DNA from: Candidatus Bathyarchaeota archaeon
GTDB lineage: Archaea > Thermoproteota > Bathyarchaeia > 40CM-2-53-6
Reading direction: 5' to 3'
DNA length: 64,000 bases
Assembly (NCBI GenBank): GCA_963726255.1
Contig: CAVSBL010000002.1
Location: 1,984,001 to 2,048,000 of the forward strand
The first letter of the stretch is position 1, and each line of letters starts with the position of its first letter. Positions 1 through 15,990 of this stretch are shown here, in pieces. The translations under genes and the position numbers were made by a program. Under the pieces are notes generated by a model, which worked only from the letters and a program-made list of their open reading frames with translations, searched no databases and was not told the origin of the DNA.

Positions 1-1011
1 CGGATTTCCAGCGACATCCACCGAGCCGTGTATCCGTTCCCTGAGGTTTTCCGGTATGGTAACTATCTTGTAATGTGCGGCCCTTGCTTCGTCGACCATC
101 ATGGTTTCGGTAATCATCTGATTTGGGGTGAGGAATACAACCTTCTCCAGCGAATTGAGGATTTTGACCGCATGCTCCTGAACGTCCATCCATTTTAATT
201 CGTCATGCGTAGTTCCAGCGTCGAAGTTCTTCAGGTCGTCTGTTAATGCCTGCGCGACTTCCTTGCCGCTGCATGACAATAGGATGGCTCTTATCCGTTC
301 AGAATAGGCGCTTCTTCCAACATTGGACCGCTCCCTGTTCAGAGCCCTCTTGATTGCTTCTGTGATTGAGATTATGTTGTAACTGAAAAGAAAATTCTCT
401 TCTTCAGCGACCTTCACTCCGTTGATGTAGATTCTTCCATTCTTTCCTTTCTTCCTGAGGACGTCGCCGTATTTCGCTCCTTCAATCGAAGCTTCTCCTG
501 AAAACTTCAAGAACAGGTCTTTCGCCTTCTCGACATCTTCGCGGGTCACCCCATGGAAAATGAATTCCGTGCCGGTGAATTTCGGGTCGGATGGTGGCGA
601 TATGTATGCATGAAGCGTCTTTACGTCCTCGAAGCCATGCTTCTGCACTCTGCCTAGCGTGATATCTCCGTGCTTGGATCTGATGAAGACCTTCACGTCG
701 TGCCTGTCGAAAGTTGCGAGAGCATCTTTGAGTCCTATTCCGAATTTGCCAATCATGTTCGGGTTTGACAATTTCTCTGCGTTTTCATTTTGAGTCAGAT
801 GGTCGTGCCGAAGCCCTCGTCCATAATCTCTGATGTGCCAGTTGCCTGACGAATCTTCCGTTATCTCTATGTCTTTCGTGTTAGTGAGTAATTGCTCGTC
901 CAATGCGTTTGCAATCACTTCCCGCAGTCCATGATGGACTTCCCAATCTTCCAGAATCTTCTCTATGTTAAGGTCAAACGGCTTCGCGTCCGCAGCGCTC
1001 ATTGTCGACAT
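1..1011 (-). CDS. GHKL (HATPase_c / HSP90-MutL-MORC-like) ATPase; 3' end beyond the window edge; absent from the ORF track
   Basis: Manual translation from ATG 1011 (or 1002): MSTMSAADAKPFDLNIEKILEDWEVHHGLREVIANALDE...IRDYGRG...IGKFGIGLKDA...FTGTEF. Contains the Bergerat-fold N box (ExxxNAxD), G1 (DxGxG), G2 (GxFGxG) and G3 (GT). Starts 1 nt after the rad50 stop. Confidence 0.85.
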   Translation of the reverse strand, partial: MSTMSAADAKPFDLNIEKILEDWEVHHGLREVIANALDEQLLTNTKDIEITEDSSGNWHIRDYGRGLRHDHLTQNENAEKLSNPNMIGKFGIGLKDALATFDRHDVKVFIRSKHGDITLGRVQKHGFEDVKTLHAYISPPSDPKFTGTEFIFHGVTREDVEKAKDLFLKFSGEASIEGAKYGDVLRKKGKNGRIYINGVKVAEEENFLFSYNIISITEAIKRALNRERSNVGRSAYSERIRAILLSCSGKEVAQALTDDLKNFDAGTTHDELKWMDVQEHAVKILNSLEKVVFLTPNQMITETMMVDEARAAHYKIVTIPENLRERIHGSVDVAGNP

Positions 1012-1012
1012 C

Positions 1013-3046
1013 TCATGATCCAGCTCCTGATTGGATTTTGGATTTACCATTTGCCTTGTCGACTCTGATGATTTGGTCGGCAAAGCTTTCGAGTTCTGTT
1101 TCATGGGAGACAAGTACGACTTGCGGACACTGCAGCTCGTGAAGGATATCACGAATTTTGTACAGCTGCTCCTTGCTGAAACCATCAGTCGGTTCGTCCA
1201 ATATGAGAAGGTTCGACTTCATGCCGATTGAGACTTGCTGCACGACACTATTGAGAGCAAGTCTGTAGGCAAGCGCGGCGCTCGTCTTCTCTCCACCGCT
1301 TAGGAAGTCTACATCCTGGTCATAGCCGTCCTGCGTAACGGTCGGCGTGAAATCTTCGTCTATTCCAACATCTTTCGTTGGGTCCTCTACAAGAAGGTTG
1401 AACCACTTCTGGAACTGGCTGCTGAACCCTTGATTGATTGCAACAAGCACCTGCCTTTCGATAAGCGCCAAGGTATTGACGAAATAGTCGTTCAACCAGA
1501 CGTGGAAATCCTTGAGCCTCATCGCAGCGTTCTTCGCGTCATCCATCTTCTTGATAGCCTTGTTCAAATCATCAATTTCATTCGCCAGGTCGGTGATTCT
1601 CTGCCTGAATGAGGAGAGATTGTTTCGGGTTTCCTTCAGCGATTCCTCTTTCCCAACGATTGACTTGTCCAGTTCATCGATCTTTATTTGGACGTCCTTG
1701 AGACTTTCTGCTTCCTTCTTCTTTCCTCCGAGTTCTTTGCCGAGCTCATCCGTCTTTTCTTTCAGCTTGGAGATCTGCGGCCCATTAGTGCCCAGAGTAT
1801 GTTTGTATTCTTTTGCTCGCTCGCTGAGTTGATTCAACGTTTCCTGATTGGCGTCAAACTTCTCCAGAACTTTGAGCAATCCACGCGCTCTTTTCGTTTC
1901 GTCCTCACAGTCCTTGAGGGCTTTGCTGGCCTTGCGCAGTTCCTCCTGCTTCTTCTTCACAAGCGCGTGAAAGTCCTTCCCTGTTGCGGGTCTGTCGCAG
2001 GTCGGACATTTCTTGTCCTTCTCTATCTTTTCATAGTCTTCGAGTTTGTCGCTTATCCTGTTCTCGGCTTTTCCGAGCTTCTTCTCCTGTGTTTGGAGGT
2101 CCTCGATTCTCTTTTCGAGTTGGTCGGTCGTCTGTGTAGTTGGGCGTTTTTCCTTCTCAAGCGGTTCCATCTTCTTTTGGAGTTCCGCGAGTTTTGTCTT
2201 GGCTTCGTCAGAGGCGTCGGTGAGGGTTTTGACGTCGAAGGTTTTGTCATCAATTTGCTTCTGAATTTGCGGCATCTCAGCCTGAAGCTTGTTGAGCTTG
2301 ATCTTATCGTCCTGCAGTCTACCTAAATCCTTACCCAGTCGATCAATGTCGCCTTGCAATCCAGTTTCTGTCTTTTCGAATTCGCCAACCTTCTTCGTCT
2401 TCTCGGTCTTCTCTGCGTCTCTGTCACCCAGTGTCTTCTTCTTGTCTTCGAGTCCCTTGGCTTCCGTGTCTAGCTGCGTTATTTTGTGTTCAATTCTAAG
2501 GTCCAACTTGCCCGCATTGTCCTGAGCAGTCTTGTATTCTTCAAGTCTGAACGCTTTCCTCAGGGTCTGAAGTCTCATGTCGGGCTTGTAGGATAAGATA
2601 GCCTTCATTTCCTCCTGGGGGGTAAAAACTGCGTATCTGTAAATCCAGCTCTGTGCCTTCGGGTCTTCCGGCTCATTGAAGTGGAGAATTTCGAGAATCC
2701 TTTGCTTCAGCTCAGAAGCTTCTAGGCTCAGCTTGCCGCTCGGCTCGATGATATGTCCGGAGCCCTGATGGATTGACTTTGACTTGCGTTCGAGGGTCCT
2801 GTGGACCGTGTAGTTCTGGCCATTTACTTCGAAAGTCAGCGTGACGTTACCTTCCTTTTGGCCAAGCCTGAGCAATGAGCCTCCCTTCAGAGATCCCAGA
2901 CCGAAGAGAGCGAACTCAATAGCCATGAGCACGGTCGATTTGCCCGAGCCGCTGGCGCCTTCAAAGAGGATGGTCCCTTGCGGGAAATCCAGTTTGAGCT
3001 TGTCATAGCTGCGGATGTTTTCGAGTTCAAGGCTCTTGAGCATCAT
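1013..3046 (-). CDS. rad50: Rad50/SbcC SMC-like ATPase
   Basis: Walker A GASGSGKST, Q-loop TPQEE, long coiled coil with zinc hook CPTC, signature LSGGE, Walker B LLILDEP, H-loop VSH. 4-nt overlap with mre11. Confidence 0.95.
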   Translation of the reverse strand: MMLKSLELENIRSYDKLKLDFPQGTILFEGASGSGKSTVLMAIEFALFGLGSLKGGSLLRLGQKEGNVTLTFEVNGQNYTVHRTLERKSKSIHQGSGHIIEPSGKLSLEASELKQRILEILHFNEPEDPKAQSWIYRYAVFTPQEEMKAILSYKPDMRLQTLRKAFRLEEYKTAQDNAGKLDLRIEHKITQLDTEAKGLEDKKKTLGDRDAEKTEKTKKVGEFEKTETGLQGDIDRLGKDLGRLQDDKIKLNKLQAEMPQIQKQIDDKTFDVKTLTDASDEAKTKLAELQKKMEPLEKEKRPTTQTTDQLEKRIEDLQTQEKKLGKAENRISDKLEDYEKIEKDKKCPTCDRPATGKDFHALVKKKQEELRKASKALKDCEDETKRARGLLKVLEKFDANQETLNQLSERAKEYKHTLGTNGPQISKLKEKTDELGKELGGKKKEAESLKDVQIKIDELDKSIVGKEESLKETRNNLSSFRQRITDLANEIDDLNKAIKKMDDAKNAAMRLKDFHVWLNDYFVNTLALIERQVLVAINQGFSSQFQKWFNLLVEDPTKDVGIDEDFTPTVTQDGYDQDVDFLSGGEKTSAALAYRLALNSVVQQVSIGMKSNLLILDEPTDGFSKEQLYKIRDILHELQCPQVVLVSHETELESFADQIIRVDKANGKSKIQSGAGS

Positions 3047-4302
3047 GGCGAGAGCACCTCCCCGAGTCCGAGTGTTTCGATTGCCTGCTCTTTCATATGC
3101 TCATCGTAGCTTTGCTTCGACTCCCCAGCCTTTGCCGCTCTTCGGAGGACTTTCAGCAAAGTGATGGCAAGCTTGGCCCCATCTTCCTCCTTGAGAGAAT
3201 TCTCCGAGACCTTGACAGTGCCGATGTTTTCCTGCAGCAGCCTGCTCTCGATTGTCTCGACGTCTTCTCCGGCAGCTTTGATTGCGGCAAACTCCTTCGA
3301 TGTCAGGCCATGCCTGTTTACGTACGCCGAGATTGCGCCTCGTTCCAGGAGGTTTTGTCTTAGCCTTGCAAAATTGATATCAGACGTCTTTCCGCCAGAG
3401 AGCTCGCCTCTCACTCGGAGCATCATGACTTTATTCTTGACATCGAGCGAGTCCAAGCTTTCCTCCAGCCAAGCTTCTGACTCATGCGCGTTTCTGTCCT
3501 CTACGTCAAAATCCTTGAAAACAAAGTCGCAGACCTGGATGGGTACGAACCGGACAGAATCGATTGTGCTGCCGAAAGAGACTATGTAGAAGCCACGTTT
3601 TGCGCCTTTGCCGCTCGCCTCATGGTCGCGAGTCTGGCTTCCAAAGAGGGCTCCTGGAAAAACCACATGATTGTAGCCTGGCAGATTCTTCTCAAGTCTT
3701 TCATGTATGTGACCGCCGGCATAGTAGTCGAATCCCTTGGGTAGCAGAGAGATCGGAATAGACTCCATGTCCGACAGATACTCGGGCTTTAACTCGTCTA
3801 AGCCTGCGTGAAATGCGAAAATCCTGAAGCCTTTTTCGGCCTCCAGACTCGCACGATCGAGCATCTCATAGTATTCGCGGTCGAGTCCGCCTTTTCTCCC
3901 AGAGATACCCACTAGCTTTGCTCCGGTCTTGGGATCAACAAAAAAATGAAGTCTGAGCTTCTCTTCTTCTATGTCGCCGCTTACTATCCTCTTGATGAGA
4001 CCGGCGCTCTCAATGATGTCGACAACAGACTTGCCATTCGGAGTAAAGTCATGGCTCCCGTAGATCACATAAACGGGAATGCCGCGGTCGGCGATTTGTT
4101 TCAGCTTACGAATTGCATCGTCGACAACTCCGAGGTCTGGAATGCTGACGTGAAACAAGTCCCCGCAAATCAGGATAAAGTCTACGTTCTCTTTGAAGCA
4201 TTCGTCAACTGCTTGCTCGAAAGCTCGCATCTCAAACTTCGATAGCACCGGGTCCGAGTTCGCTCCCAAGTGAATATCTGCGATGTGTGCAAATTTCGCC
4301 AT
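3043..4302 (-). CDS. mre11: Mre11/SbcD metallophosphoesterase nuclease
   Basis: Motifs ADIHLG, GDLFH, GSHD (variant of GNHD), FHAG, GHIH. Adjacent to rad50. Confidence 0.93.
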   Translation of the reverse strand: MAKFAHIADIHLGANSDPVLSKFEMRAFEQAVDECFKENVDFILICGDLFHVSIPDLGVVDDAIRKLKQIADRGIPVYVIYGSHDFTPNGKSVVDIIESAGLIKRIVSGDIEEEKLRLHFFVDPKTGAKLVGISGRKGGLDREYYEMLDRASLEAEKGFRIFAFHAGLDELKPEYLSDMESIPISLLPKGFDYYAGGHIHERLEKNLPGYNHVVFPGALFGSQTRDHEASGKGAKRGFYIVSFGSTIDSVRFVPIQVCDFVFKDFDVEDRNAHESEAWLEESLDSLDVKNKVMMLRVRGELSGGKTSDINFARLRQNLLERGAISAYVNRHGLTSKEFAAIKAAGEDVETIESRLLQENIGTVKVSENSLKEEDGAKLAITLLKVLRRAAKAGESKQSYDEHMKEQAIETLGLGEVLSP

Positions 4303-4308
4303 CTGGAA

Positions 4309-5847
4309 TCACCTTGTGAATTGAACCTTCTGCTTCTTCCCTTGCTCAGTGTGCTGGCTGGCCACGTAGTCCTCAAACTTCGGAATCTGAATGGGGACGG
4401 CGAACTTCGCGAACACGCTACTGAGGATCGCTTCGCCCTTGTCCAAGCTTGCTATGTTCCTGTCGTCCTGCGAAAGGTCTTGTGAAGCGCTGTCAATGAT
4501 TGAATGCCGCTCTGCAGACATCTCATTGCCCAGAATGATCTTCGTGTTGAGATTGGTCAAGATGTCCCTGGGTATCGCACTAGTGATTTGCGTTACCGCA
4601 ATCAGGCCTATCTTGAATTTTCTTCCCTCGCGCGCTATGGTGCTGTATACATTGTCGCCGGCTTTCTCCAGCCTGTCCTGACCGAGAACCCTGGGCGCTT
4701 CTTCTATGGCTATGCTCACAACTGGCTTGTCATCGAGACTTCCCTCCGCCTTGTAGCTTTGGTATCTGTCTAGAATTTCGTTGGCGATAATGCTCCCAAC
4801 GAGTAGTTCGGCTTCATCACCGATCTTTGAAGTGTCAACGACAACTATCTTTCCCTTCTCAAGGGCGTTCACAATATCGGATATTGTCGACTCTCCAGCG
4901 CTGTCTGAAAAGATCCTGTTCGAGCAGATGAGATTTCCATCGGAGTCTACCCGAATGCCGAACTTGGTCCTGAAGATTCTTTGGAGTACCGTTTTTGTTG
5001 TATCCTTCACCCCGTTGACGTCCGTTCCTCGTACTATGTTGTCGATCCAGTCTTGTCGGAACTCTTGGAAGTAGGCTGTGAAGGCTTGTTCCTGTGCATC
5101 TGTCAATCTCACAATGCCGTTGAGATGGTCGGGCGTGATAGAACGGAGATTTATGACAAGGGTGTTTGTACCTGCAGGAGCATTCACTGAATAATAGAGC
5201 AGGTTCCCTTTCGCATCATTGTGGTCTTTCAGGCCGATGGAACTTCTACCGTAATACTCGTCGTGCGGATCGAGTACGAGAATCCCAAATTTCTTCTGCC
5301 CTAGAACGCTCCAAAGCATGACTTTGACTAGATTGCTTTTTCCACGGCCGGTCGTCGACGGGATGAGTACGTGGTGTCGGAGCGCTTCCTCTCCGTCAAG
5401 ATACACATCAGCATCGATTATCTTGCTTCCGCTTCTGACCTTTCCAAGGTACAGAGGATTTGCAGGGCGGGTAAGGAACTTGAGGTCATCTGCGTTGACA
5501 GACCTCACTGTACCAAAGAACTCGGGGAGAATCTTCGGCGAATGAGGAGTTTCCTTGATATCAAGGACGGCCTTGCATTCGGCCAAGATGTAGTTGCGCA
5601 ATCCTGGCTCAAGGAACTCAAGGCTTGCACCGAGTCCCTCAAGCTTCATGCCAGCAAGGTGTTCCCTTGTGGACTGTGGAATCTGACTGCCGTAGAGCAG
5701 ATTATAGACTTGAAGAATAAGAAAACCTTCACTCGTCTCAGCGACGAGGAGGTCACCCAGTTCGATTTTTGTGCCGCTCTTCTCACGAATAATGACCTGA
5801 GCGACTTGCCCGCCGACAATCTGGCCACAAATATCTGTATCTTCCAT
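4309..5847 (-). CDS. herA: HerA/FtsK-family helicase-translocase
   Basis: N-terminal HAS-barrel-like region, Walker [17 protein letters not shown], Walker B IAIEEA, arginine finger AREGRKF, VTQ sensor. Confidence 0.92.
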
Positions 5848-5850
5848 TTC

Positions 5851-6966
5851 TTACCACTCCTTCAAATTATCAAGAACGTCATGAGCATCGAGCGATTCAA
5901 TGTGACGGGAGAATTTTGGCCACGAGCCATTCTTGGAAATCTCGGAAAGCAGCATCACACGATGCAGCTCTACATCCGAACCGATGACCTTTGCATTTGC
6001 ATCCGCATCAACGAGCCCGTACGGATAGCCTGGAAAAGCTATGTCACAAGAGTTTTCGGACAGCCCTGAAAAGATCTCACATAATTGCTCTTCAGTGAGT
6101 TTTCCTGCCTGATTGGCCTGAATCTCGTATCTGAAGATGCGCATGCTTTCCGGCCTGAGCCTAAGCAGGAAGATCGCAGCCTCATGTTCAGGGCTCTTCG
6201 ACTTGGCAATCGGATAGTAGTACCAAGGCGGCTCGACGCTCTTGTCTTCCGCGAGCTTCCTGACAGCTCCTAGCAAAGACAGACCTGTGGTGGTGAACAA
6301 ATTGCTGGTTTTGGCCAGACCAGTGTAGAGCACGCCTCTCTTTCTCGCTGCGGAATATCCCTCCCTCGCGTAGTTGTCCTCATTCTTGAAAGCGGTCCTA
6401 AGCGTACCATCCATTACGATAATGTCGCCATCAGATAGTACATTCTCGACTACGCTGGTCGCTAGCCTCCATTCCGCGAATCTCCGTGCGATGGTCGCAA
6501 CTCTTCTGATATCAGCTCTTGATGTGCCCTGCATTAATCGCTGGTCGAACGAGCTAAAAGAAAGGTCCGCTTGGTCGGGCAGAAACGCCTCATTGCCTTC
6601 AACAAGCGGGAACAACGATGTCTCGAAGACTATCTCATTACCTTCGAAACGAGCCACGGTTGCAGAAACGAACTCGACCTTCTGAGGTATGCTTGCCTCG
6701 TGATTCACCCGCTTAGGTCCGCAGAAGACATTGAAGTACAGCCTATTGAACTGGACCGAGAAGTTGGGTGCCTGCAGCAGCGGCTGATTACCGCCGTCCA
6801 CGAAGGCAATCCTCCGTGCTGAATGTGAGTGCTTGAGAGGATGAAAATTCGACAAACCAAGAGGAACGGTGTCGTAGTTGTGGCTGCTTAGGTCGGGGTT
6901 TCCGAGATCCATCTCGCTAACTCGTGCGTCAAGATCTTGTGCAACCCTTTCGGCAAATTGGCTCAT
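5851..6966 (-). CDS. nurA: NurA 5'-3' nuclease
   Basis: RNase H-like motifs FVDGG, VMDGTL, GLAKTS, GYPYGLVDAD. Directly upstream of herA. Confidence 0.88.
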   Translation of the reverse strand: MSQFAERVAQDLDARVSEMDLGNPDLSSHNYDTVPLGLSNFHPLKHSHSARRIAFVDGGNQPLLQAPNFSVQFNRLYFNVFCGPKRVNHEASIPQKVEFVSATVARFEGNEIVFETSLFPLVEGNEAFLPDQADLSFSSFDQRLMQGTSRADIRRVATIARRFAEWRLATSVVENVLSDGDIIVMDGTLRTAFKNEDNYAREGYSAARKRGVLYTGLAKTSNLFTTTGLSLLGAVRKLAEDKSVEPPWYYYPIAKSKSPEHEAAIFLLRLRPESMRIFRYEIQANQAGKLTEEQLCEIFSGLSENSCDIAFPGYPYGLVDADANAKVIGSDVELHRVMLLSEISKNGSWPKFSRHIESLDAHDVLDNLKEW

Positions 6967-6977
6967 ACCATTCTCAC

Positions 6978-9272
6978 CTATAGCAACACCATGTTATCTT
7001 GAACCATGACGCCAGCAGAGATGTTCTCGCCGAGGTTCTGCGTCAGTATCTGAGGGAGGGCAAACTTGCCCTGCCTGAAAATCGAAGACCAATTCAAATG
7101 AGTAAGCCTGTAGTATTCATCGATGATCTGTTTGATGTGGGGTCTTGGTGTGGCTTCACAATTGATGCAAAGATGCTTCTTGAGCGATATCTCGATGGGC
7201 TGTGCGGTTCCAAACGGAGCTGCGCACGAAACGAGCAAACCTACATTATCGTTGTAGGCAATGGCGGTGCCTTCTCGAACATTGGTCGTCGAATCACCGG
7301 TCTGTTCGATGATGCGCTTGTTGGGGGACTTGTTTACTCCTATGACGTCAATGATCAAGCTCTTCGGATAAGTCTCCTTTCTGCTCAAGAGGCTTGGTAT
7401 CGGTTCCTTTCTCTCTTCTGGGATGCCGTGTAGTATGACGCTCTCAATCATGTCTGCCTCGTCTTCTCTTATGACGCCGTCTTTGGCGAACACGAGACGG
7501 CGGAATGAAAATACTCGACCGTCGATGTGGCCGAACTTCTGGCCAAAAAGTGCTATCTTGCTGAGCAGGTCGATGAGAACGTCGTAGAAACCAGACGGAG
7601 TCAGCTTTTCGCCGCCAATCGGCTTGGTGCCGGTAGCGATGTATCTTCCGTAGGAGTCAGTCATGGCACTATAGGCGGTCGCAGAGGCCTTGAGCTTAGG
7701 TCTTCTAGATACGTCGTGATATGCATAGCATGAACAGCCGGGGGTTATGCCAAAGATTGCTGAGTCAGCGGGCTCCTTCAGAATCCACGCCGCAGTCCCC
7801 GTTCCTCCGAACTTGATGTAGCACTGAGAAGCGGTGTTCACTTTAATGCCGTACGATGCTGCAGATGATGAAAGGATTTTTCGAAGCGTTCCAAGCGCGA
7901 TTGCTTGTGAGGGGAAAGGTTCCGTTCCGAACAGTCTTTCAAAGAGTTTCTCGCGTGAGCGATAGTAGACTTCGGACGCAAAAGTGTCTGGAAGTACAAT
8001 GAAGGCAAGCACTCTCTGGTTTGTCTCGGCTCGGAGTTGGGTTATTGCTGAGGTGTAGTCCGCAACGCTCTCTCCACCTGTATCTATGAAGCCGTCCTCG
8101 CCGATCGTGGTTGCTCTTTGAAGCGTTCCAAAACCTAGTTCACCGTACGTGTCCTCAAGCGAGTTCAGAGCAACCGAAATTTCGTCTCTAGTGCCGTTGT
8201 GGATTACGATGTATTTGCCGTCCAGCGACCCAGCAAAAGGACCATGTTGTTTGAGAGAGGCGTGTATCGAAGCGACGGGTGTGATTGCTTCATTGCCGAC
8301 AACCAACGCAAGTTGTGAACGTGGAGCAAGAGATAATTCCTCGAATCTGACGGAAGACGGGCTCGATGGGCCTTCGAGCTCAATTCTCTCGCCGATGAAT
8401 TTCAGGTCGGCTAGCTTCTCGCGTACAAAATCCGTTGCGAAGTTAATTCGCAAAGCTGGGTCTTTCTTGAGATTGCTTGGTAGTGGTTCTCCCTGCCTAA
8501 ACTCTTTGAACACGCATGACTTCGGGTAGGAAACCTTGGACCGAAAGAGAGGGACGAATACTTCGAGCATTTCTTCATTCGGGTCAACAAAGTCAACATG
8601 ATGTTTGATGCGCCAGTAATCAGAAGTCTTGCACTTGCCTTCGCCAAGAGGGAATTCGAGCTGATCTGCTTTCTCAGATTTCCTCCCAACGAGCACTCCA
8701 TAGATCCAATGCGGGAGAACACGGACTTTCACTTCAGACTCTTCTGCCATGTGTACGGCTTCTGCAATTTGTGACTCTGAAATGGGGGTCATGATTCGAG
8801 TTCTGATATCTACCCAAATCGAAAGGCGCGAATCAACAATTTCTGATTGAATTCGGTAGGCGCGTTTCATGTTCGAGGATTTATCTTGAATGTCGCGGGC
8901 CAGAACGTAGCGATCCCCCGTCTTGAGGAAGCCTCTGCTGAGAATATGGTACCTAACTCGGTTCTGCCAGGCCATCTCCACTGCAGCCATCGGGACTGAG
9001 CTCATGGGTTCAACCTTTAGTCCGAGGCTGTCGAACCTGACTAACATTTTCACGAGTTGCTGTGGCTCTGCGTCTAGGACAACAATGTCAGACTCCTTGG
9101 TCTGGAAAACCGCAGCGTCAAAACCATTTCTGATGATTGTGGCACAAACCGCTTGGAGCTTGGCCCGCTTCTCCTGCTCCATCTCCATAACGATGGAAGA
9201 GAATTTGATGCTGCTGCCTGAGACTTGTTGCGGGACTCGAGTTTTTGATTTGTACAAGTTGAGCACTTTCAC
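6978..9272 (-). CDS. ago: Long prokaryotic Argonaute (N-L1-PAZ-L2-MID-PIWI)
   Basis: 764 aa. PAZ-like DYWRIKHHVDFVDPNEEMLEV...SYPKSCV. MID pocket YYRSR / PSQAI / NTASQCYIKFGG. PIWI motifs YHDVS, GGEKL, FAKDG, IGVNKS, GTAQPI, YRLTHLNWSS..LPQILTQNL. Hydrophobic C-terminus MVLL. GTG start overlaps the upstream stop, with GGAGG upstream. Confidence 0.88.
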   Translation of the reverse strand: MKVLNLYKSKTRVPQQVSGSSIKFSSIVMEMEQEKRAKLQAVCATIIRNGFDAAVFQTKESDIVVLDAEPQQLVKMLVRFDSLGLKVEPMSSVPMAAVEMAWQNRVRYHILSRGFLKTGDRYVLARDIQDKSSNMKRAYRIQSEIVDSRLSIWVDIRTRIMTPISESQIAEAVHMAEESEVKVRVLPHWIYGVLVGRKSEKADQLEFPLGEGKCKTSDYWRIKHHVDFVDPNEEMLEVFVPLFRSKVSYPKSCVFKEFRQGEPLPSNLKKDPALRINFATDFVREKLADLKFIGERIELEGPSSPSSVRFEELSLAPRSQLALVVGNEAITPVASIHASLKQHGPFAGSLDGKYIVIHNGTRDEISVALNSLEDTYGELGFGTLQRATTIGEDGFIDTGGESVADYTSAITQLRAETNQRVLAFIVLPDTFASEVYYRSREKLFERLFGTEPFPSQAIALGTLRKILSSSAASYGIKVNTASQCYIKFGGTGTAAWILKEPADSAIFGITPGCSCYAYHDVSRRPKLKASATAYSAMTDSYGRYIATGTKPIGGEKLTPSGFYDVLIDLLSKIALFGQKFGHIDGRVFSFRRLVFAKDGVIREDEADMIESVILHGIPEERKEPIPSLLSRKETYPKSLIIDVIGVNKSPNKRIIEQTGDSTTNVREGTAIAYNDNVGLLVSCAAPFGTAQPIEISLKKHLCINCEATPRPHIKQIIDEYYRLTHLNWSSIFRQGKFALPQILTQNLGENISAGVMVQDNMVLL

Positions 9273-10048
9273 TTTCTCCCCTCCAGCTTGGTTTGGAACG
9301 TTGATGCCTGAGTTCGTGTCAAGTATGGGCCTAGGATTCTGTCGGCGACGTACCTCAGAATCGCCGCCTGTTCCGAGAGAGTGAATGTGTCGGCGGCTGC
9401 GTGAATGGTCACTACCCCCGTCTCACGGAAACCCACTCTCGGCTCAGAATCGAGCTGGGTAAGCGGCACTTTCACAAATGCAAGCGGCTCGCCGCCGTAG
9501 GCCGCCCAGAATTCAGTCTCGGTGACGGACGCTCGGCTCGTGGCTGAAATCAGATCAGGTTCCTGTTTCTTCGACGGTTTGACGTCCACCTTGATGACTT
9601 CTGGCACGGAATCGATGACAGCTTTCAGAGTGCTTTGGTTGAACTTCAGTATGGAAGTCGCAAGGCCTGGCAAAAGATTATGCTCCATTACGGACTGGAG
9701 ACGGTCTGCTATGGTGCTGGGGCATACCCCGACGAATAGAAAACCAGAGTCAAGGATAACTACCGGCACTCTCTTGAGTTCAACAATCGATTTCTTTGCC
9801 ACGCTTCCTTTCTCGATGGTCTCGTATTCATGCGGATACGCGAATCCCAGTTCGAACACAATTCCTCCCTCAACTTGGTGAATGCTGTCAGGCATTGTCC
9901 CCTCGGTAAAATCCGGAATTTCGGACTCGACCTGAATCGACTTCACTTTCTGGGATAGAGAACGGTCTTTTGCAACATTCTTCGGGATTGGTGTGATGTT
10001 GTAGCTAGGCAAGAAACTCGCCCTCCTGTGCAACTTTCGTCTGAACAA
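9269..10048 (-). CDS. Hypothetical protein translationally coupled to Argonaute (likely real start TTG 10012)
   Basis: Stop overlaps the ago start (GTGA). GGAGG precedes TTG at 10012. No motif recognised. Confidence 0.75.
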   Translation of the reverse strand: MFRRKLHRRASFLPSYNITPIPKNVAKDRSLSQKVKSIQVESEIPDFTEGTMPDSIHQVEGGIVFELGFAYPHEYETIEKGSVAKKSIVELKRVPVVILDSGFLFVGVCPSTIADRLQSVMEHNLLPGLATSILKFNQSTLKAVIDSVPEVIKVDVKPSKKQEPDLISATSRASVTETEFWAAYGGEPLAFVKVPLTQLDSEPRVGFRETGVVTIHAAADTFTLSEQAAILRYVADRILGPYLTRTQASTFQTKLEGRK

Positions 10049-11135
10049 ACGGGACGACTTCTGTTTTCACTTTGTAAAATGCGGAACGACCTATCCTCTC
10101 GGTTGTCAGGAGCTTCATTGATGAAAGAGTCGATAGATGATACGAGATTGTTGCCTTATCTTTGCCAAACTTCTCGGTCAGGGTCGAGGGTCTGGTACCC
10201 CGCTCATCATGTTCGAGCAGCATGTGCTTGAGCAATAGCGTGTGAAATTCTGAAAGCTGGGACAGACGTTCCTGAATGCCCTTTATGCCCAACCTGTCCG
10301 CAGCGCTTTCTATCGATTCGCGGTCGACAGTCTTCTTGTGCTGGAGGAAAGTCTCTTCAAGTCCTTGAACGAAAAGCCGCAGTGCCACTCCAGGCACTCC
10401 GAAAGATAATCGAAATACTGCATCGGCAACTTCCTCGGGGACTGTGAACTCTGCGTTGCTAATTATGGCAGAGAAAGAATCGATGATCTCGGTGATGTCG
10501 TCCTTGGACAGCGGATCCAAGTAGACCTGTTTGCTGACAGGTATCACGTCGCTCAGTGAGTCTCGCTGGACGTTCCATGATTCCGGAGTCCATGCGGTGA
10601 TGATGACCCCATGCCCCATAGCTCGAACGATCTCTTTGATGGAACTCGCTGGGTCTTTGTCCTTGTCGAATGAATCCACAACCAGCAGATCCAGTTTCTC
10701 TTTTCGAATCTCGTCAAGAAAGGTGAAGAACCAATTCGGCTCTTCTTTTTGTTCGTCGATTTCCACGAACCTACACGCATCAACGAGTCGCTTCTTAATT
10801 TTTGATTGGATTTTTTCCAGGGAAGAACAGAGCGCGTTCAGGAGAGCAGTCTTTCCGGACTGCTCGACACCTATAACAGGAATATGATAGATGCCTTCCC
10901 GTTCTTTCTCAAAGTAGCCGATGAACTCGGCAGTCTTCTGTAGAGCTTCTTCGCGATCCGCGAGAAGGCTCGGGTTCTCGGTAATCGATTTCGTGAGGTC
11001 GGTTGTCGTCAACAAGCGAGGCTCGATTCGCTGCTCCTTTAGCCAGACCTGCAGGCTGCTGACTTCGCCACGCAGACCCTTCTCGTACGCTTCTTCGAAC
11101 AAATCCAACGTTTGACGTTTATTCATACCAATCAA
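10005..11135 (-). CDS. P-loop (AAA-like) ATPase with C-terminal ArsR-type winged HTH; probable operon regulator (likely start ATG 11126)
   Basis: Walker A GVEQSGKT, Walker B LLVVDS, SFGVPG sensor-like motif, C-terminal KDKATISYHLSTL...ERIGRSAFYKV. Confidence 0.75.
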   Translation of the reverse strand: MIGMNKRQTLDLFEEAYEKGLRGEVSSLQVWLKEQRIEPRLLTTTDLTKSITENPSLLADREEALQKTAEFIGYFEKEREGIYHIPVIGVEQSGKTALLNALCSSLEKIQSKIKKRLVDACRFVEIDEQKEEPNWFFTFLDEIRKEKLDLLVVDSFDKDKDPASSIKEIVRAMGHGVIITAWTPESWNVQRDSLSDVIPVSKQVYLDPLSKDDITEIIDSFSAIISNAEFTVPEEVADAVFRLSFGVPGVALRLFVQGLEETFLQHKKTVDRESIESAADRLGIKGIQERLSQLSEFHTLLLKHMLLEHDERGTRPSTLTEKFGKDKATISYHLSTLSSMKLLTTERIGRSAFYKVKTEVVPFVQTKVAQEGEFLA

Positions 11136-11194
11136 ACTATATTTAAGCTGTTCTTACTAATCAAACAATTATTGCTTCAAGTATTTAAATCTAT
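11130..11194 (-). promoter_or_regulatory. AT-rich putative promoter of the Argonaute/resection operon
   Basis: Minus-strand TATA-like TTTAAATA (11182-11189) and TTAAATA (11140-11146). Near-direct repeats aatcaaactat (11130-11140) and aatcaaacaat (11159-11169). Confidence 0.5.
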
Positions 11195-11202
11195 CATCGG
11201 CC

Positions 11203-11816
11203 GGTTCTGTCTAATCTTCGGTAGCTTCGGGTTCTTCTTCGGGCTGTCCAAACTCGGTTGCTGGCAGTAGTTGATTACTTCATTTGCCGCTTCTTGCGGG
11301 CAAAAGCCCGGAGCATCGGGACGTCCTCCCGGAAGGCCTGCGCCAGCATCCCCCTCATCTCGTCCGCGAGCGCCTTCGGGGCCAGCACGTAGACATCGAT
11401 TCCGGTCTTTTTCCCCTTTGGAGTGTAAATGAAGACCATCTTCGAGCCCGCGTAGGAACCCTCCAGGTCCTCGGTGATGCGGACAAAGGGAGGAATGGTC
11501 GTTAAACGCACCTTCAGCTTCATCCACCTGCCTCCCCTCACGACTTCGCAGTCGGCTAAGCCCGTTCTCTCATCGATTTTCTTCCACTTCATGTTTCGCA
11601 GGCTCTTACTGTGAGCCTGTGGGTGGAACTCTTCGTCGTTCAGCATGAAATCCCAGACCACGCCGATGGGGGCGTCGAGGACGCTTCCCTTGTCCTCGAA
11701 GTAGACGAAGTCCTTGGGATCTTTTGCCTTTGCGGGGCGGGTCGCCATGACAGGAGATGTGGTAGGGGGACTATAAAGAGCCCACGAGGCCGAACTACCG
11801 AAGATTAGACAGAACC
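11203..11816. mobile_element. Non-autonomous IS6-like element (MITE/cassette) carrying a passenger gene
   Basis: Perfect 22-bp terminal inverted repeats: GGTTCTGTCTAATCTTCGGTAG (11203-11224) and its reverse complement (11795-11816). 8-bp direct repeat CATCGGCC immediately outside both ends (11195-11202, 11817-11824). No transposase inside. Confidence 0.88.
11275..11748 (-). CDS. SRPBCC/START-like (Bet v1 fold) ligand-binding protein, passenger of the element
   Basis: SVLDAPIGVVWDFM N-terminal pattern and C-terminal amphipathic helix. ATG 11748 lies about 24 nt downstream of TTTATA (11772-11777, minus strand), inside the element. Confidence 0.65.
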   Translation of the reverse strand: MATRPAKAKDPKDFVYFEDKGSVLDAPIGVVWDFMLNDEEFHPQAHSKSLRNMKWKKIDERTGLADCEVVRGGRWMKLKVRLTTIPPFVRITEDLEGSYAGSKMVFIYTPKGKKTGIDVYVLAPKALADEMRGMLAQAFREDVPMLRAFARKKRQMK

Positions 11817-11959: not shown

Positions 11960-14326
11960 TCAGCTTCGTTCAAGAAACCTATGGAAATAGGCCGTTTTCT
12001 TCGGGTTCATGGGGGGGATGTCAGCTAACTTTCTCTCAGTATCACCGATCGAGAAATCCAATGCAAATCGGTGGCTGTCCTTGATCGCTAGCAACATCCT
12101 GCCGAGCACTTGGATACTATCTGGTTCTGTTTGAGAAATCAAGTTGTCGCATAACCTAGCCACCTCGTCATCCACGTCATTGGGGCTGAGGAAATGGGTT
12201 AACATCCCGCAGTAGGTTTCTATGAAGTCCTCTTCGTCGAATCCTTTCTCGGGATAATACCGCTCGGATAGCTCCTTCACGAATTCTCTTGTTTCATGAT
12301 AATTGCTTCCAATCGTCATTTCGGAGCACGAAACCAGGTCCCTCAAGTACAGGTGCGGAAACGGATAGCCGTAGCAGTAGGACGCGGCAAGCAATCGGGC
12401 GCAGAAGCTTACAATGTCTGACTTGGCGCAGTCACTTCCTTGTATGTTCTGGAGGTTTGTGTCGATGGTCTGGGAAAGCCTGTCCAGCATATAGGCATCA
12501 ACGCCTTGCCTGAAGATTCTCAGGAAAAAATCCATGAGGATAGATTGAGCGTTAAGGATCGAGTTGGACGGTGTCGGGCTCTTCACGGTGGAGGCTGAAA
12601 GCATGATGATCTTGTTCAGGTTGGACAGTATTCTCACCACGAGTTTTGTCCGCTCTTCCTCCTGATCCAAGTAGCTTGGGTATCTAGGGTGAGGCGATAG
12701 CTCCTCCTCATCGCCTGAAAATGATGTCTCGGTGTCCCTGAGCATACTCTTCTTGGAGTTTGTCCAGCGCAGTAATGCTTCAAGGTCGCGCAAAAGCGAG
12801 TCCGGACTTGATATTCCGCTCATTCTGCTGGGTAGATAATGCTTCCTCTCCTCCTTCGTCTCGCTGGGAGCGCTCGTTGTCATCTCTGGTTCAAGCGTTC
12901 TCCTTGCAAGCCCGCTGATGATTGCCAACACTTCTGAAATGTCCACCGAGAAATCCCGGTACAGTTTCCTAGAGATTTCTTCAAAGGAGGCTTGGGACCT
13001 TGCAATTCGCTTGATGAAGTAGTGCTTGTCGAAGAATATGCGCCTCCGTCCGCTCCTTCCTCCGCATGTGACCACGACCTCCTTGGGATTTCCCTGCGGT
13101 ATGTCCAAAGCAATCTCACGCGTGACGGGACCAAATTCGCCTTCAATTGTTCCCGCTGTTTCCTCCATCGTAACTACGGCCGTTGCTGGGCCCTTCAATG
13201 GCTCGGTTCTCACCGTGAGAGTGCGTGAAATGTCGTCGAAATCGGCAGAGAGTATCCTTAACGAGTCACTGGCAGGCGACTCCATTGGTCCGGATGCTCT
13301 GAGCAGGCTCCGGACATCCTTGGGCTCTGTGAGAGCGATGCTATCCAGAATTTCGGCGAAATCTTGCCCTCTATGCAGCACTGCACATTCGAGATTTCCG
13401 GATTTAGCCGTCGCAAGCAGTGCGCTTGATGTCAGATTCGGAGAACCCACGAGAAGATGCTTCTCAGGCCCGTCAATGCAAATCACCTTTGAGTGGAACT
13501 GGCGTGAGGGTTCGCTGAACTTAGCTTCCACCACGCGAAATCTAACCCCTTTTGATGCCAGGAGCTGTTCGTAGCGTGATATGTCTGTCAAGTTGTGATT
13601 ACCTCTCTGGAGCGCCAGCGTAACGCTCTCGGTCTTGACTCCGTCAGTAAGCTTGTCCACGACTATGGGATCTTGCGAAAGAAAAGGAGCCATCAGAAAT
13701 ACATCTGTGGTCTTTGCTTGTCCCAAAAGCTCCAGCATCTGCTCCAGAATCGGTCTATTCAGGTTGTGCATAATCGAAAAGCTTCTGTCATTCGGTTCGG
13801 CTGTGACTTTTGCCAGTTGGAATGCTTTAATCAAGTCTTGAAAGAGGGAGGTGACCTTCCGTTCCTCAACGTAACCTTGCAATAGGCCCGCAACCAGTTC
13901 TCCCAGGGTCCTGTACAATGCCCCGTCGTTGGCCGCGCCTAAGCTGACTTTGGTGATGAGTTCCGCATTGCTTGTGAAACCGTGCAGCGTGATATTTCCG
14001 CTTCCTATGTATAATGTGCCTGTGCGTCCGTTTTCCGACAGGAAAAGGAACAGCTTCGGGTGAAATACTCCATTAGAAAGATAAACCGGGACGAGATGGT
14101 AGCTCCTTCCGGTGTGATTCGTAAATCTGTCATAGCTTCTTTCGTATTGTGCGCCGTCGACCAGAACGACGATTTCTGCTCCCGGATTGTTCTCTTGAAG
14201 GGCTTTCAGCAGGCAGATGTCGAAAAAGAAAGGATCGAAGCAGTAAGTAGTCAACACAATGTAGTCGTTGTTCTTCTGCTTCTCTGTAAGTTCCTCGATG
14301 AGGTCTATTCGATGCGCTTTAGCCAT
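11960..14326 (-). CDS. Phospholipase D-superfamily nuclease with two HKD-type motifs and a long C-terminal region
   Basis: LTTYCFD, FHPKLFL...GSGNIT...SNAE, and MAPF, FHSKV...GSPNLT...GNLE. Confidence 0.85.
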   Translation of the reverse strand: MAKAHRIDLIEELTEKQKNNDYIVLTTYCFDPFFFDICLLKALQENNPGAEIVVLVDGAQYERSYDRFTNHTGRSYHLVPVYLSNGVFHPKLFLFLSENGRTGTLYIGSGNITLHGFTSNAELITKVSLGAANDGALYRTLGELVAGLLQGYVEERKVTSLFQDLIKAFQLAKVTAEPNDRSFSIMHNLNRPILEQMLELLGQAKTTDVFLMAPFLSQDPIVVDKLTDGVKTESVTLALQRGNHNLTDISRYEQLLASKGVRFRVVEAKFSEPSRQFHSKVICIDGPEKHLLVGSPNLTSSALLATAKSGNLECAVLHRGQDFAEILDSIALTEPKDVRSLLRASGPMESPASDSLRILSADFDDISRTLTVRTEPLKGPATAVVTMEETAGTIEGEFGPVTREIALDIPQGNPKEVVVTCGGRSGRRRIFFDKHYFIKRIARSQASFEEISRKLYRDFSVDISEVLAIISGLARRTLEPEMTTSAPSETKEERKHYLPSRMSGISSPDSLLRDLEALLRWTNSKKSMLRDTETSFSGDEEELSPHPRYPSYLDQEEERTKLVVRILSNLNKIIMLSASTVKSPTPSNSILNAQSILMDFFLRIFRQGVDAYMLDRLSQTIDTNLQNIQGSDCAKSDIVSFCARLLAASYCYGYPFPHLYLRDLVSCSEMTIGSNYHETREFVKELSERYYPEKGFDEEDFIETYCGMLTHFLSPNDVDDEVARLCDNLISQTEPDSIQVLGRMLLAIKDSHRFALDFSIGDTERKLADIPPMNPKKTAYFHRFLERS

Positions 14327-15990
14327 TCTCTCCCCTTATCGGTGAGTGTCAGTTTCGACCTACTTTCTTGAACGAATCCTGCGTCGTTGAGCAGGCTTCG
14401 TATGGCGTCCCAGCGGTTGTCGCGAGTTCGGAAGTCGACTGGCTCTGTTCTTGCAAAGAAAAGGCGGCCTCCGTCCTCCGTAAATATCCAGTTTTTGGTG
14501 CCGTTGTTCGCGAATCTGTTCGCTGCCTCAAAGAGGTGTCTGTTAACGATCATGAGGGCCAGGTTGACGAGAAAGTCGTGCGCTTTCACGCTGTTGCGAT
14601 CAGAGAATGAGATGATATTGTGGATCGAGATGGGGTCCTCAGTGAGTTCAGCCTTGTTCGACGTGCCGTATTCTCGTAAAATCTGCTCCGTGTCCAAGTA
14701 CCGTTTATGCAGAAGGCATAGCATGACGGCGATTGCCCCCAGCGTGTCCTCCGGCTTCTCGGCATTGTAAAGCAAGTCGTACACTTGCGACTCGTTTATG
14801 CGCGACCGAGTGCTCGTCCTCCGGCTGTGTCCGTTGCGCTTCTCTACGAGTCTGATCAGGTCATCCATGGTCGAGTTAGAATCGATGTGGGCTGAAAGCG
14901 TCCGTGACAAGCCGCTGTAGACGGCGTTCCATTTGATGACGGAAAGAACCCTTGATTTCTCAATGCCGTGGTAGTTGGCAACTACTCTCTGGATCACATC
15001 TAAGAGCATCTCAATCGCGAAGACGTAATAGACGTTCAGTTGAAAGAATTCCCAGAAGTTCCTGGCTTTCTCAAGTCGACCAAAATCAATCTTGGCACGC
15101 GTGTTCCTGTTCTCCGAGAAGTAGATGGCGTCCCATAAATAGCGTTCAAATCCTGCGACAGGCGGATTGGTCTCGTCAATAACGTTCATGAACAAAAAGA
15201 GCGTATTTCTTCTGCGCAGACCCCATTGTCTCACAAACTCGGCATCCTCGAAAGTTAGAATATTCTCCAGGCTAATCGAGTCCTGAGGCAATCTGTCCTC
15301 GAATTCAAGCTGAATCTTACCTTTCTTGAATGCGAGATATTCGTGGTCATCTATGTCCCAGTTATCACCCTTCTTGCTCAAGAAGCCAAAGAGTAGTTTC
15401 GACATGACCTCCTTCTCGCTCTCATTGCGAGGCGTTGAGCAAATACACAGGCTCCTGAAATCCAGCAGCTCCTTCCGACGAAATTTTGTCTTCCTGAAGA
15501 ACTTGGTGTCCGGGGCGTTAAGGCACGAGGCGAGCTTCGAATTTATCGGCGATGTCTGCAGTCCGCCGAGGTAGGTCCAAGCACACCTAAGAATCTCCAG
15601 TTGCCTGCTGTAGTATGTTCTGGCAAAGCCATTGATGGCGAAGCCGAGATCGAACTGGTTGGTTGCGCTCCACTTTCCCCTGAACCGTTGCTTGTTGAAC
15701 ACATTTCTCAGGCTAGGATCAGTATCGTCTCCATTATGGTGCGCCAGGCATGAGAGTATGAATATTCGTTCGTAGTCTAACATGTCAATGGTTTGGCTTC
15801 GAGCCAGGTTTTCAAAATACCAGGCGAGGAGAGTGTAGTACCGAATGCGCCTCGTTACTGAGGTAATCCCTGGCGTGAAATCTTCTTGGATTTTGAGATG
15901 TCGCCCCCACAAGCCCAGCAGGTTGACAGCGCGCGAATCCGATGGGATTCTTTCAGACCAGTCCAGCGTGGTGCGCTCGTCAAGCTGCAT
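14305..15990 (-). CDS. Hypothetical protein coupled to the PLD nuclease; N-terminus resembles DUF6361-type defence-associated proteins
   Basis: NLLGL...FTPGITSVTRRIRYYTLLAW motif. C-terminal wHTH-like end (LLNDAGFV...LTLTDKGREWL). 22-nt overlap with the PLD gene. Confidence 0.6.
   Translation of the reverse strand: MQLDERTTLDWSERIPSDSRAVNLLGLWGRHLKIQEDFTPGITSVTRRIRYYTLLAWYFENLARSQTIDMLDYERIFILSCLAHHNGDDTDPSLRNVFNKQRFRGKWSATNQFDLGFAINGFARTYYSRQLEILRCAWTYLGGLQTSPINSKLASCLNAPDTKFFRKTKFRRKELLDFRSLCICSTPRNESEKEVMSKLLFGFLSKKGDNWDIDDHEYLAFKKGKIQLEFEDRLPQDSISLENILTFEDAEFVRQWGLRRRNTLFLFMNVIDETNPPVAGFERYLWDAIYFSENRNTRAKIDFGRLEKARNFWEFFQLNVYYVFAIEMLLDVIQRVVANYHGIEKSRVLSVIKWNAVYSGLSRTLSAHIDSNSTMDDLIRLVEKRNGHSRRTSTRSRINESQVYDLLYNAEKPEDTLGAIAVMLCLLHKRYLDTEQILREYGTSNKAELTEDPISIHNIISFSDRNSVKAHDFLVNLALMIVNRHLFEAANRFANNGTKNWIFTEDGGRLFFARTEPVDFRTRDNRWDAIRSLLNDAGFVQESRSKLTLTDKGREWLKRIE

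Follow-up and report, generated by a model that had tools for sequence, protein, structure and literature searches.

The 64,000-nucleotide (nt) stretch of Candidatus Bathyarchaeota archaeon DNA analysed here, called the window (contig CAVSBL010000002.1, positions 1,984,001 to 2,048,000), carries an operon-like run of eight genes in which a gene for a divergent prokaryotic Argonaute (pAgo) is followed by genes for NurA-, HerA-, Mre11- and Rad50-family proteins. By analogy with better characterized pAgos, and on a modest balance of the evidence, the run is probably a horizontally mobile, self-contained Argonaute immune module that is coupled to its own NurA-HerA-Mre11-Rad50 end-processing machine. 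No description of an Argonaute together with HerA, NurA, Mre11 and Rad50 was found in the full-text literature, with figures, supplementary tables and subscription journals outside the scope of the search. The words Mre11, Rad50, SbcC, DUF87 and "resection" are absent from the main text of a 2018 pAgo census (PMC6299218), whose Figure 6 and supplementary tables (Table S2) may list such orthogroups. The gene set suggests a pAgo system with operon partners, in a combination that is apparently undescribed.

The eight genes are all present at the positions claimed in the earlier note on this DNA, and all lie on the minus strand. In window coordinates, and in the direction of reading, they are:

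11135-10005, minus strand: AAA-wHTH gene (wHTH, winged helix-turn-helix), 376 amino acids (aa) from TTG 11135 or 373 aa from ATG 11126
10048-9269, minus strand: ORF259, 247-259 aa, RdgC-like predicted fold
9272-6978, minus strand: ago, 764 aa, divergent long pAgo
6966-5851, minus strand: nurA, 371 aa, NurA-family nuclease
5847-4309, minus strand: herA, 512 aa, HerA-family hexameric translocase/helicase ATPase
4302-3043, minus strand: mre11, 419 aa, Mre11/SbcD-family metallophosphoesterase nuclease
3046-1013, minus strand: rad50, 677 aa, short Rad50/SbcC-family ABC ATPase with coiled coil and CPTC zinc hook
1011-1 and beyond the window edge, minus strand: GHKL gene, 469 aa at full length, ending at G000:C2:1983602

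The stop codon of ORF259 and the GTG start of ago share the sequence GTGA, and 11 nt separate the ago stop codon (TAG) from the ATG of nurA, both as read from the sequence. By coordinates, there are gaps of 3 nt between nurA and herA and of 6 nt between herA and mre11, a 4-nt overlap of mre11 and rad50, and 1 nt between rad50 and the GHKL ATG at 1011. This gene spacing suggests that the operon is co-transcribed. Two starts are ambiguous: ORF259 has 259 aa if read from TTG 10048 and 247 aa in the public gene call, and the AAA-wHTH gene may begin at the in-frame ATG 11126 instead of TTG 11135. In the 139-nt gap 5′ of the AAA-wHTH gene (window 11136-11274) are two A/T-rich, TATA-box-like elements, TTTAAATA and CTTAAATATAG, which are a candidate archaeal promoter of the operon.

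The operon lies on a 2.36 Mb contig (contig C2 of genome G000). Two other runs of the same study yield contigs that tile the region, and a contig of a second run (X2 record 11, 6179-7056) bridges the ago/nurA junction. These contigs, together with the recurrence of the gene order on dozens of contigs elsewhere, exclude an assembly chimera, which the earlier note had listed among the outcomes that would undo its claim. The GC content is 0.48-0.52 across the operon and 0.511 contig-wide; thus base composition of the operon against the contig gives no sign of recent import.

Related loci were retrieved by Ago-derived peptide patterns only, so that neighboring genes were not selected for. Species genomes yielded 15 loci and metagenomes 40; with four duplicates removed, 51 distinct loci are left, 45 of which are informative downstream, i.e., have at least 1.3 kb of sequence past ago. 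Genes of the NurA, HerA, Mre11 or Rad50 families are found within 3 kb downstream of ago and on the same strand in 37 of these 45, and in nearly all loci the spacing is 11 nt or less. The linkage is thus not unique to this contig. Labeled carriers among archaea are Nitrososphaerales, Bathyarchaeia, Hydrothermarchaeota, Archaeoglobales, Halobellus clavatus, which has the full locus (L027), and Haloquadratum. Among bacteria they are one Dehalococcoidia and one gammaproteobacterial metagenome-assembled genome.

The cassettes that stand next to Ago have two gene orders and come in at least three unrelated versions. The first type has the order nurA-herA-mre11-rad50 with a short Rad50, and the second the order mre11-rad50-nurA-orf205-herA with a 900-aa Rad50. 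Between the two types the Agos are 41-45% identical, whereas HerA, Mre11 and Rad50 are only 20-26% identical. In the Ago tree, the second type forms one clade (SH-aLRT 100) and the first is interspersed with the third cassette version, a Dna2-like locus and others. In the Dna2-like locus (L020), a protein with a Cas4-type nuclease and an SF1 helicase is encoded between ago and mre11-rad50, and in another locus (L022) an AddA-like protein of UvrD and PD-(D/E)XK parts comes directly after ago. The closest view of an exchange comes from two metagenome contigs, L055 (6107-8397) and L056 (1555-3846). The two Agos are 91.5% identical in protein, and their genes are 89.6% identical over 2,293 nt, but the nt identity ceases at the gene end; the cassettes that follow are unrelated in DNA, and their proteins align at no more than 30% identity or not at all. 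This looks like a recent replacement of the cassette beside the same Ago. Since the pairing is kept while the partner cassette is replaced, selection on the combination is indicated, and since the slot is filled by unrelated helicase-nucleases, end resection would be the selected activity. A side feature of the second cassette type (L026, L027, L064-L070) is an extra gene of about 205 aa, always found between nurA and herA (e.g., L027:17599-18222), that has no Pfam match.

The 764-aa Ago has no sequence match in Pfam, NCBIfam or PDB. It does match the PADLOC pAgo model PDLC02436 (E 1.5e-44, residues 339-753), and PF02171 is precomputed on three of its homologues. An AlphaFold2 (AF2) model made with 30 homologues has a pLDDT of 79.7 and a pTM of 0.80. 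When this model is used in a Foldseek search, PliAgo, CbAgo, Siwi, KmAgo and hAgo2 are matched at E 1e-22 to 1e-27 with TM-scores of 0.5-0.6; for the first four the values are E 1e-25 to 1e-27 and 0.57-0.61 (PliAgo 7r8h, E 9.8e-27 and 0.59; CbAgo 6qzk, 0.59). Full-length Argonautes align to the model over about 800-870 columns. By its modeled fold, the 764-aa protein is truly a long Argonaute and has N, PAZ-like, MID and PIWI regions, which bears out the identity given to it in the earlier note. All 30 homologues have D520, E555 and D598, and at least 28 of the 30 keep the MID-pocket-like residues Y436, R440, Q456, N479 and K487.

The fourth position of the catalytic tetrad was placed by register, with the use of the canonical C-terminal Argonaute motif, of the numbering of D756 in VbAgo, and of a low-confidence region of the model. 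By this register the position is probably Q745, which lies in an invariant motif and is kept in 19 of the 20 relatives, near and distant, that were aligned; the remaining sequence is truncated. In the accessible text of PMC10448046, D756 is the fourth-position residue of VbAgo. H712 was also considered as the fourth catalytic residue as it aligns with an aspartate of VbAgo; it was dropped because it is not conserved in distant relatives, whereas Q745 is. The tail of the protein, residues 727-764 (window 6978-7094), is modeled at a pLDDT below 50; its motif LPQILTQNLGENISAG is nevertheless among the most conserved stretches of the family. A search of PDB sequences with the last 74 residues gave chance-level matches only. 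According to the part of a 2026 paper on VbAgo that is accessible, target cleavage is mediated by the C-terminus, and the conserved tail of the window Ago may likewise be functionally special.

The Ago clade is, by the searches made, rare, isolated and very divergent. A single-sequence search found 31 proteins in 5.8 billion, and a profile search of 1.84 billion representatives found 101 at E≤1e-3, 72 at 1e-10 and 33 at 1e-30. No relatives were found in IMG/VR viral contigs or, with tblastn at 1e-10, in PLSDB plasmids. VbAgo is the only solved Argonaute that can be detected by sequence profile (E 6.3e-4), and an LTHLNW helix is common to both proteins.

All four cassette proteins are confirmed by profile as members of the families to which they had been assigned. 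NurA matches PF09376 with 39 bits against a cut-off of 21 (E 8.6e-10), over the full length of the model (2-254 of 254), and its acidic residues are conserved across 25 homologues. HerA matches DUF87 (97 bits, E 1.8e-27) and has a conserved Walker A motif, G169-K170. Mre11 matches Metallophos (59 bits, E 9.3e-16) and Mre11_Pyroc (122 bits, E 3e-35), and D9, H11, D48, H165 and H200 are conserved in 39 sequences. Rad50 matches PRK03918 (202 bits, E 1.1e-59) as well as SMC_N and AAA_23. It keeps the Walker A, Q-loop, zinc hook, Walker B and H-loop motifs of the Rad50/SbcC architecture, with the CPTC zinc hook at 347-350; at least 90% of 34 sequences share Walker A G30-K36, Q144, C347/C350, D617 and H648. 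Rad50 models of 870-890 positions have a coiled coil that is longer by about 200 aa. The scores are nonetheless far below the NCBIfam equivalog cut-offs: 18.7 bits against 400 for NurA, 102.5 against 800 for HerA (HerA_Thermprot), 121.9 against 600 for Mre11 (Mre11_Pyroc) and 202.3 against 700 for Rad50. By these cut-offs the four are clear family members, yet not orthologues of the housekeeping proteins.

It should be noted that Rad50 also matches the Lamassu model LmuB (PDLC03859) over its full length (E 7.3e-39). A Lamassu identity was rejected because the Rad50 models score higher and the partner gene, overlapping by 4 nt, is of the Mre11 type; in addition, no LmuA or LmuC match is found among the ten proteins scanned with PADLOC.

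The distribution of the genes among relatives is patchy. Ago is found in none of 60 relatives that share the genus (22), the family (14) or the order (24), and a close Mre11, at 46-49% identity, in three of the same 60, so that vertically inherited presence of the cassette in the lineage is not seen. Two of these three have the same four-gene cassette without Ago, followed by OLD-family ATPase-TOPRIM nucleases (L041:14287-16311, L042:14282-16162) and DNA methyltransferases; an integrase is close by. In Halobellus clavatus, a canonical Mre11_Halo encoded elsewhere scores 635 bits, against 69 bits for the Ago-linked Mre11. The earlier note had asked that the window genome be checked for a second resection locus. 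The operon Mre11 is the only Mre11-model match there and the operon Rad50 the best Rad50 match. Other NurA-domain and HerA-family genes are at C2:892-894 kb, 401-404 kb, 58 kb and 1974 kb, other Rad50-model matches at C2:521 kb and 1118-1124 kb, and the other six Metallophos matches at C2:30 kb and 1608-2043 kb; thus no Rad50 or Metallophos match is near the other NurA/HerA genes, whose surroundings were surveyed in part.

Defense-type genes surround the operon. On its downstream flank, on the minus strand (G000:C2:1977084-1983408), are type I hsdM, hsdS and hsdR and a YgjP/SprT-like metallopeptidase. On the upstream flank, also on the minus strand, window 11960-14326 encodes a 788-aa PLD-family protein with two PLDc_2 stretches and DrmC/ZacB-like PADLOC matches. 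It is overlapped by a 561-aa open reading frame (ORF) with no family match (window 14305-15990, minus strand), and the two are probably another defense gene pair. Because Ago turned up in none of the 60 relatives and the cassette in only 3 of them, because Halobellus has a separate canonical Mre11, and because of this defense-island setting, the operon is, as judged from gene content, an accessory, mobile, defense-island module and not a housekeeping one.

The most likely mechanism is a feed-forward one, modeled entirely on the precedent of CbAgo and RecBCD. The small DNAs that CbAgo takes up come from double-strand breaks on which RecBCD has acted, and this action is held in check by RecA (bioRxiv 10.1101/2020.03.01.971358). 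In the operon described here, Mre11-Rad50 and HerA-NurA would engage and degrade the free ends of foreign DNA that invades or replicates, and short 5′-phosphorylated fragments would be captured by Ago as guides. The guide-loaded Ago would then nick or cut complementary DNA, and the new ends would feed the same machine until the target is destroyed. More speculatively, the AAA-wHTH protein may regulate or license the system, the RdgC-like ORF259 may bind processed DNA or restrain recombinase loading. The GHKL-HExxH protein is an optional add-on. The earlier note had proposed that Ago may act with the resection genes as a single self-contained system of interference. Conserved adjacency, its spread over distant lineages, cassette exchange, other end-processing helicase-nucleases beside ago and the accessory defense setting support that proposal strongly; a core role for the GHKL protein did not hold.

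Several observations weigh against the reading as an Argonaute module with its own end-processing machine. Eight of the 45 informative loci have no cassette downstream of ago. One of these (L022) has a UvrD and PD-(D/E)XK, AddA-like helicase-nuclease directly after ago, one (L030) has a truncated Ago with Mre11-Rad50 upstream, one (L031) is a 39-residue Ago fragment only, and five (L023, L025, L060, L077 and L078) have other or unknown neighbors. Many loci are close kin, and therefore 37 of 45 overstates the number of independent events. The cassette is also much more abundant than Ago, its Mre11 family having 2,478 matches at E≤1e-20 against 31 for Ago; more than 100 of the matches of this family are at 52% identity or above, with labels that include Bathyarchaeia, Zixibacteria and [Eubacterium] cellulosolvens. 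Since the cassette occurs without Ago, it can work alone. Lysine is, besides the residues named in the next sentence, among those expected at the fourth tetrad position. Q745 differs from it and from the D, H or N that stand for X in the DEDX tetrad as given in the accessible text of PMC10448046. Ago may thus slice targets poorly or not at all; slicer activity is plausible, not assured. In addition, VbAgo, the only solved relative detectable by sequence, cleaves RNA and not DNA, as far as the available text on it goes.

Because of the glutamine at the fourth position, the main rival is a division of labor in which Ago only recognizes the invader by guided binding, perhaps with nicking, and the cassette is the effector that degrades the marked DNA and has no role in guides. 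We hold this to be unlikely. A fourth residue other than D, H or N is in its favor, as is the existence of a cassette that presumably works without Ago. However, HerA-NurA and Mre11-Rad50 require DNA ends, and a non-cutting Ago would supply none. The invariance of D520, E555 and D598 in all 30 homologues is also unexpected in a non-catalytic PIWI domain. According to Ryazansky 2018 (PMC6299218), a pAgo whose active site is impaired usually has an effector nuclease as its partner, which again suits the rival, but the CbAgo-RecBCD precedent, as it appears in the part of that work available, concerns guide production.

The earlier note had given, as its own alternative, that Ago was recruited to break repair. 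More broadly, Ago could serve genome maintenance (break repair, recombination or chromosome processing) together with the resection machinery of the cell. The partner genes belong to families of archaeal double-strand-break repair, the fold of ORF259 is that of RdgC, which is recombination-associated, and the operon holds the sole Mre11-model match and the best Rad50 match of the genome. Yet the occurrence of Ago and cassette in relatives is too patchy for housekeeping genes, the spread crosses phyla and domains with exchanged cassettes, and Halobellus keeps a separate canonical Mre11 while the Ago-linked genes sit in defense islands. Recruitment to repair is thus disfavored and genome maintenance in general very unlikely.

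Defense genes tend to cluster, and the cassette is found alone in defense islands of relatives and is far commoner than Ago, so a stand-alone pAgo and a stand-alone NurA-HerA-Mre11-Rad50 system might merely be co-located; this is highly improbable given same-strand spacing of 11 nt or less in nearly all loci, adjacency that survives Ago divergence to about 41% identity and replacement of the cassette, different end-processing enzymes in the same slot, and the lack of such a neighbor in only 8 of 45 loci, two of which have the AddA-like gene or the upstream Mre11-Rad50.

A wider reading, which is possible but which we advance only tentatively, is that the whole Ago clade depends on an end-resection engine encoded in cis. 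It would be the first case of a prokaryotic Argonaute whose own operon provides for guide biogenesis or target clearance. Any resectosome would suit, whether NurA-HerA with Mre11-Rad50, Dna2-like or AddA-like, and the RdgC-like protein would keep the resected DNA from recombinational repair. As a corollary, the nurA-herA-mre11-rad50 cassette with a short Rad50, which is common without Ago in both archaea and bacteria, would be a stand-alone anti-invader system and no repair operon.

The source of guides and the discrimination of foreign from own DNA by DNA-guided pAgos are an open question, for which the best evidence, CbAgo with RecBCD, involves a host enzyme. If the reading as a self-contained module is true, the link between Ago and resection would be genetically explicit and directly testable. 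To our knowledge, archaea have no RecBCD or AddAB, and the module would show how they solve the same guide problem without RecBCD. The widespread NurA-HerA-Mre11-Rad50 paralogue set would be immune and not repair hardware, and the D-E-D-Q Ago clade may have unusual biochemistry. Experiments are feasible because the system occurs in cultured haloarchaea (Halobellus clavatus, L027).

The operon shares features with several known systems. With CbAgo (Kuzmenko et al., in the part accessible) it has in common a full-length pAgo, a conserved D-E-D core and an end-processing helicase-nuclease as functional partner. In that same text, however, the partner of CbAgo is a host housekeeping enzyme encoded elsewhere, whereas here a dedicated machine is encoded in the same operon; also unlike CbAgo, the window Ago has no Pfam match, and its fourth tetrad residue is apparently Q. 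Similarity to VbAgo, a pAgo from Verrucomicrobia, is very weak, as gauged against what is accessible of PMC10448046 and PMC13219720. The tetrad of VbAgo is D-E-D-D, against an apparent D-E-D-Q in the window Ago, and VbAgo uses DNA guides to cleave RNA (PMC10448046); the word "operon" is absent from the main text of that paper. As in the archaeal herA-mre11-rad50-nurA resection operon, the same four families are clustered, with zinc hook, phosphoesterase motifs and Walker A. Unlike that operon, the cassette has sub-equivalog scores, a 677-aa Rad50 and the order nurA-herA-mre11-rad50, is spread patchily (3 of 60 relatives) in defense islands, and is joined to an ago operon.

pAgo systems with effectors include the long-B systems BPAN, BPAS and BPAM, the short systems SPARTA, SPARSA and SPARDA, and SiAgo-Aga1-Aga2. 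These have single effector partners, usually abortive-infection toxins, and their pAgos are missing catalytic residues, unlike the window system, which pairs Ago with an ATP-driven resection machine of four proteins and in which D-E-D does not vary. The likeness lies in partners that are encoded in the operon and act in defense, nucleases being frequent among them (Ryazansky 2018, PMC6299218, as far as accessible). The same portion of PMC6299218 reports UvrD-helicase/PD-(D/E)XK proteins in some pAgo operons (orthogroup og_6) and "hydrolases and phosphatases" in 10% of long-pAgo operons. L022, a locus of the window's Ago clade, has exactly such a UvrD/PD-(D/E)XK neighbor. Bacterial NurA-HerA degrades viral DNA, according to the accessible part of a 2026 review (PMC13748450).

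Of the two genes upstream of ago, the first encodes a protein with a weak ATPase_2 match (residues 59-111), an ArsR/SmtB helix-turn-helix (HTH) at 312-361 (E 3.5e-8), and Csa3/CasR-like wHTH matches. Its atlas neighbors are AAA_22/AAA_16 plus HTH proteins. By these matches it is an AAA+/STAND-like P-loop ATPase with a C-terminal ArsR/MarR-type winged helix, and it is probably a regulator or DNA-binding sensor of the module. In 25 of 33 informative loci this gene lies no more than 1.5 kb upstream of ago, in the same direction or divergent. ORF259 is directly upstream of ago in 18 of the 33, and is absent where the AAA-wHTH gene is divergent.

ORF259 has no match in Pfam, PADLOC or NCBIfam, and so is not placed in the RdgC family by sequence. 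Its AF2 model (pLDDT 84.1) has as best PDB match in Foldseek the E. coli RdgC 2owl_B (E 1.3e-7, probability 1.00, TM-scores 0.54/0.48, root-mean-square deviation 6.5), and the next fold match is CENP-L. E. coli RdgC is a ring-shaped, recombination-associated DNA-binding protein. The model thus has an RdgC-like fold of moderate similarity, and DNA binding is predicted. The family is as small as that of Ago, with 52 proteins in 5.8 billion, all at E≤1e-23, including homologues labeled Haloarcula argentinensis and Haloplanus halobius.

A GHKL ATPase at the end of the operon was part of the gene set claimed in the earlier note. The position is as claimed, 1 nt after rad50; the identity as a GHKL (Bergerat-fold) ATPase is weakly supported. 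HATPase_c is matched at E 0.0043 with 17.9 bits, below the cut-off of 26.4, Bergerat-type motifs are visible, and there is a match to a sacsin-type ATP-binding domain (E 4.7e-4). The protein read from the ATG at 1011 has no Pfam match. At the C-terminus is an HExxH metalloprotease-like motif (HEASH). Homologues are found directly after rad50 in L046 and L052, the latter with HATPase_c_3 at 1.6e-4, and in L048 a protein of the same layout (HATPase_c_3 at 9.3e-16 plus a WLM-type HExxH) follows rad50. Counting the window, a GHKL-type gene stands after rad50 in 4 of the 13 loci of the window's cassette type that reach past rad50, and unrelated genes occupy the slot in others. The GHKL gene is an occasional add-on and no core part.

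Further genes recur around the operon and its relatives. Beyond the hsd genes next to the window operon, the opposite strand encodes an 824-aa DUF87/HerA-like ATPase; a Dam-class methyltransferase gene also lies in this part. A convergent HerA/TraG-like P-loop ATPase of 596-676 aa, on the opposite strand, is found downstream of the Ago operon with both cassette types (L017:13670-15472, L047:17854-19644, L027:20255-22174, L066 and L067). It matches DUF87 in L047 and TraG-D_C/TrwB in L027, and may be part of the system or of a neighboring element. In L030, L028, L072-L074 and L078 the ago ORF is truncated or split; these may be decaying copies or sequencing frameshifts. In L030, a Haloquadratum walsbyi J07HQW1 scaffold, a 448-aa Ago has Mre11 and a 1090-aa Rad50 upstream and none downstream. 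OLD-family ATPase-TOPRIM nucleases are also present in Ago-linked loci, one gene past rad50 in L048 (19828-21636) and directly after herA in L064 (19829-21490), and are thus a recurrent third neighbor of the cassette.

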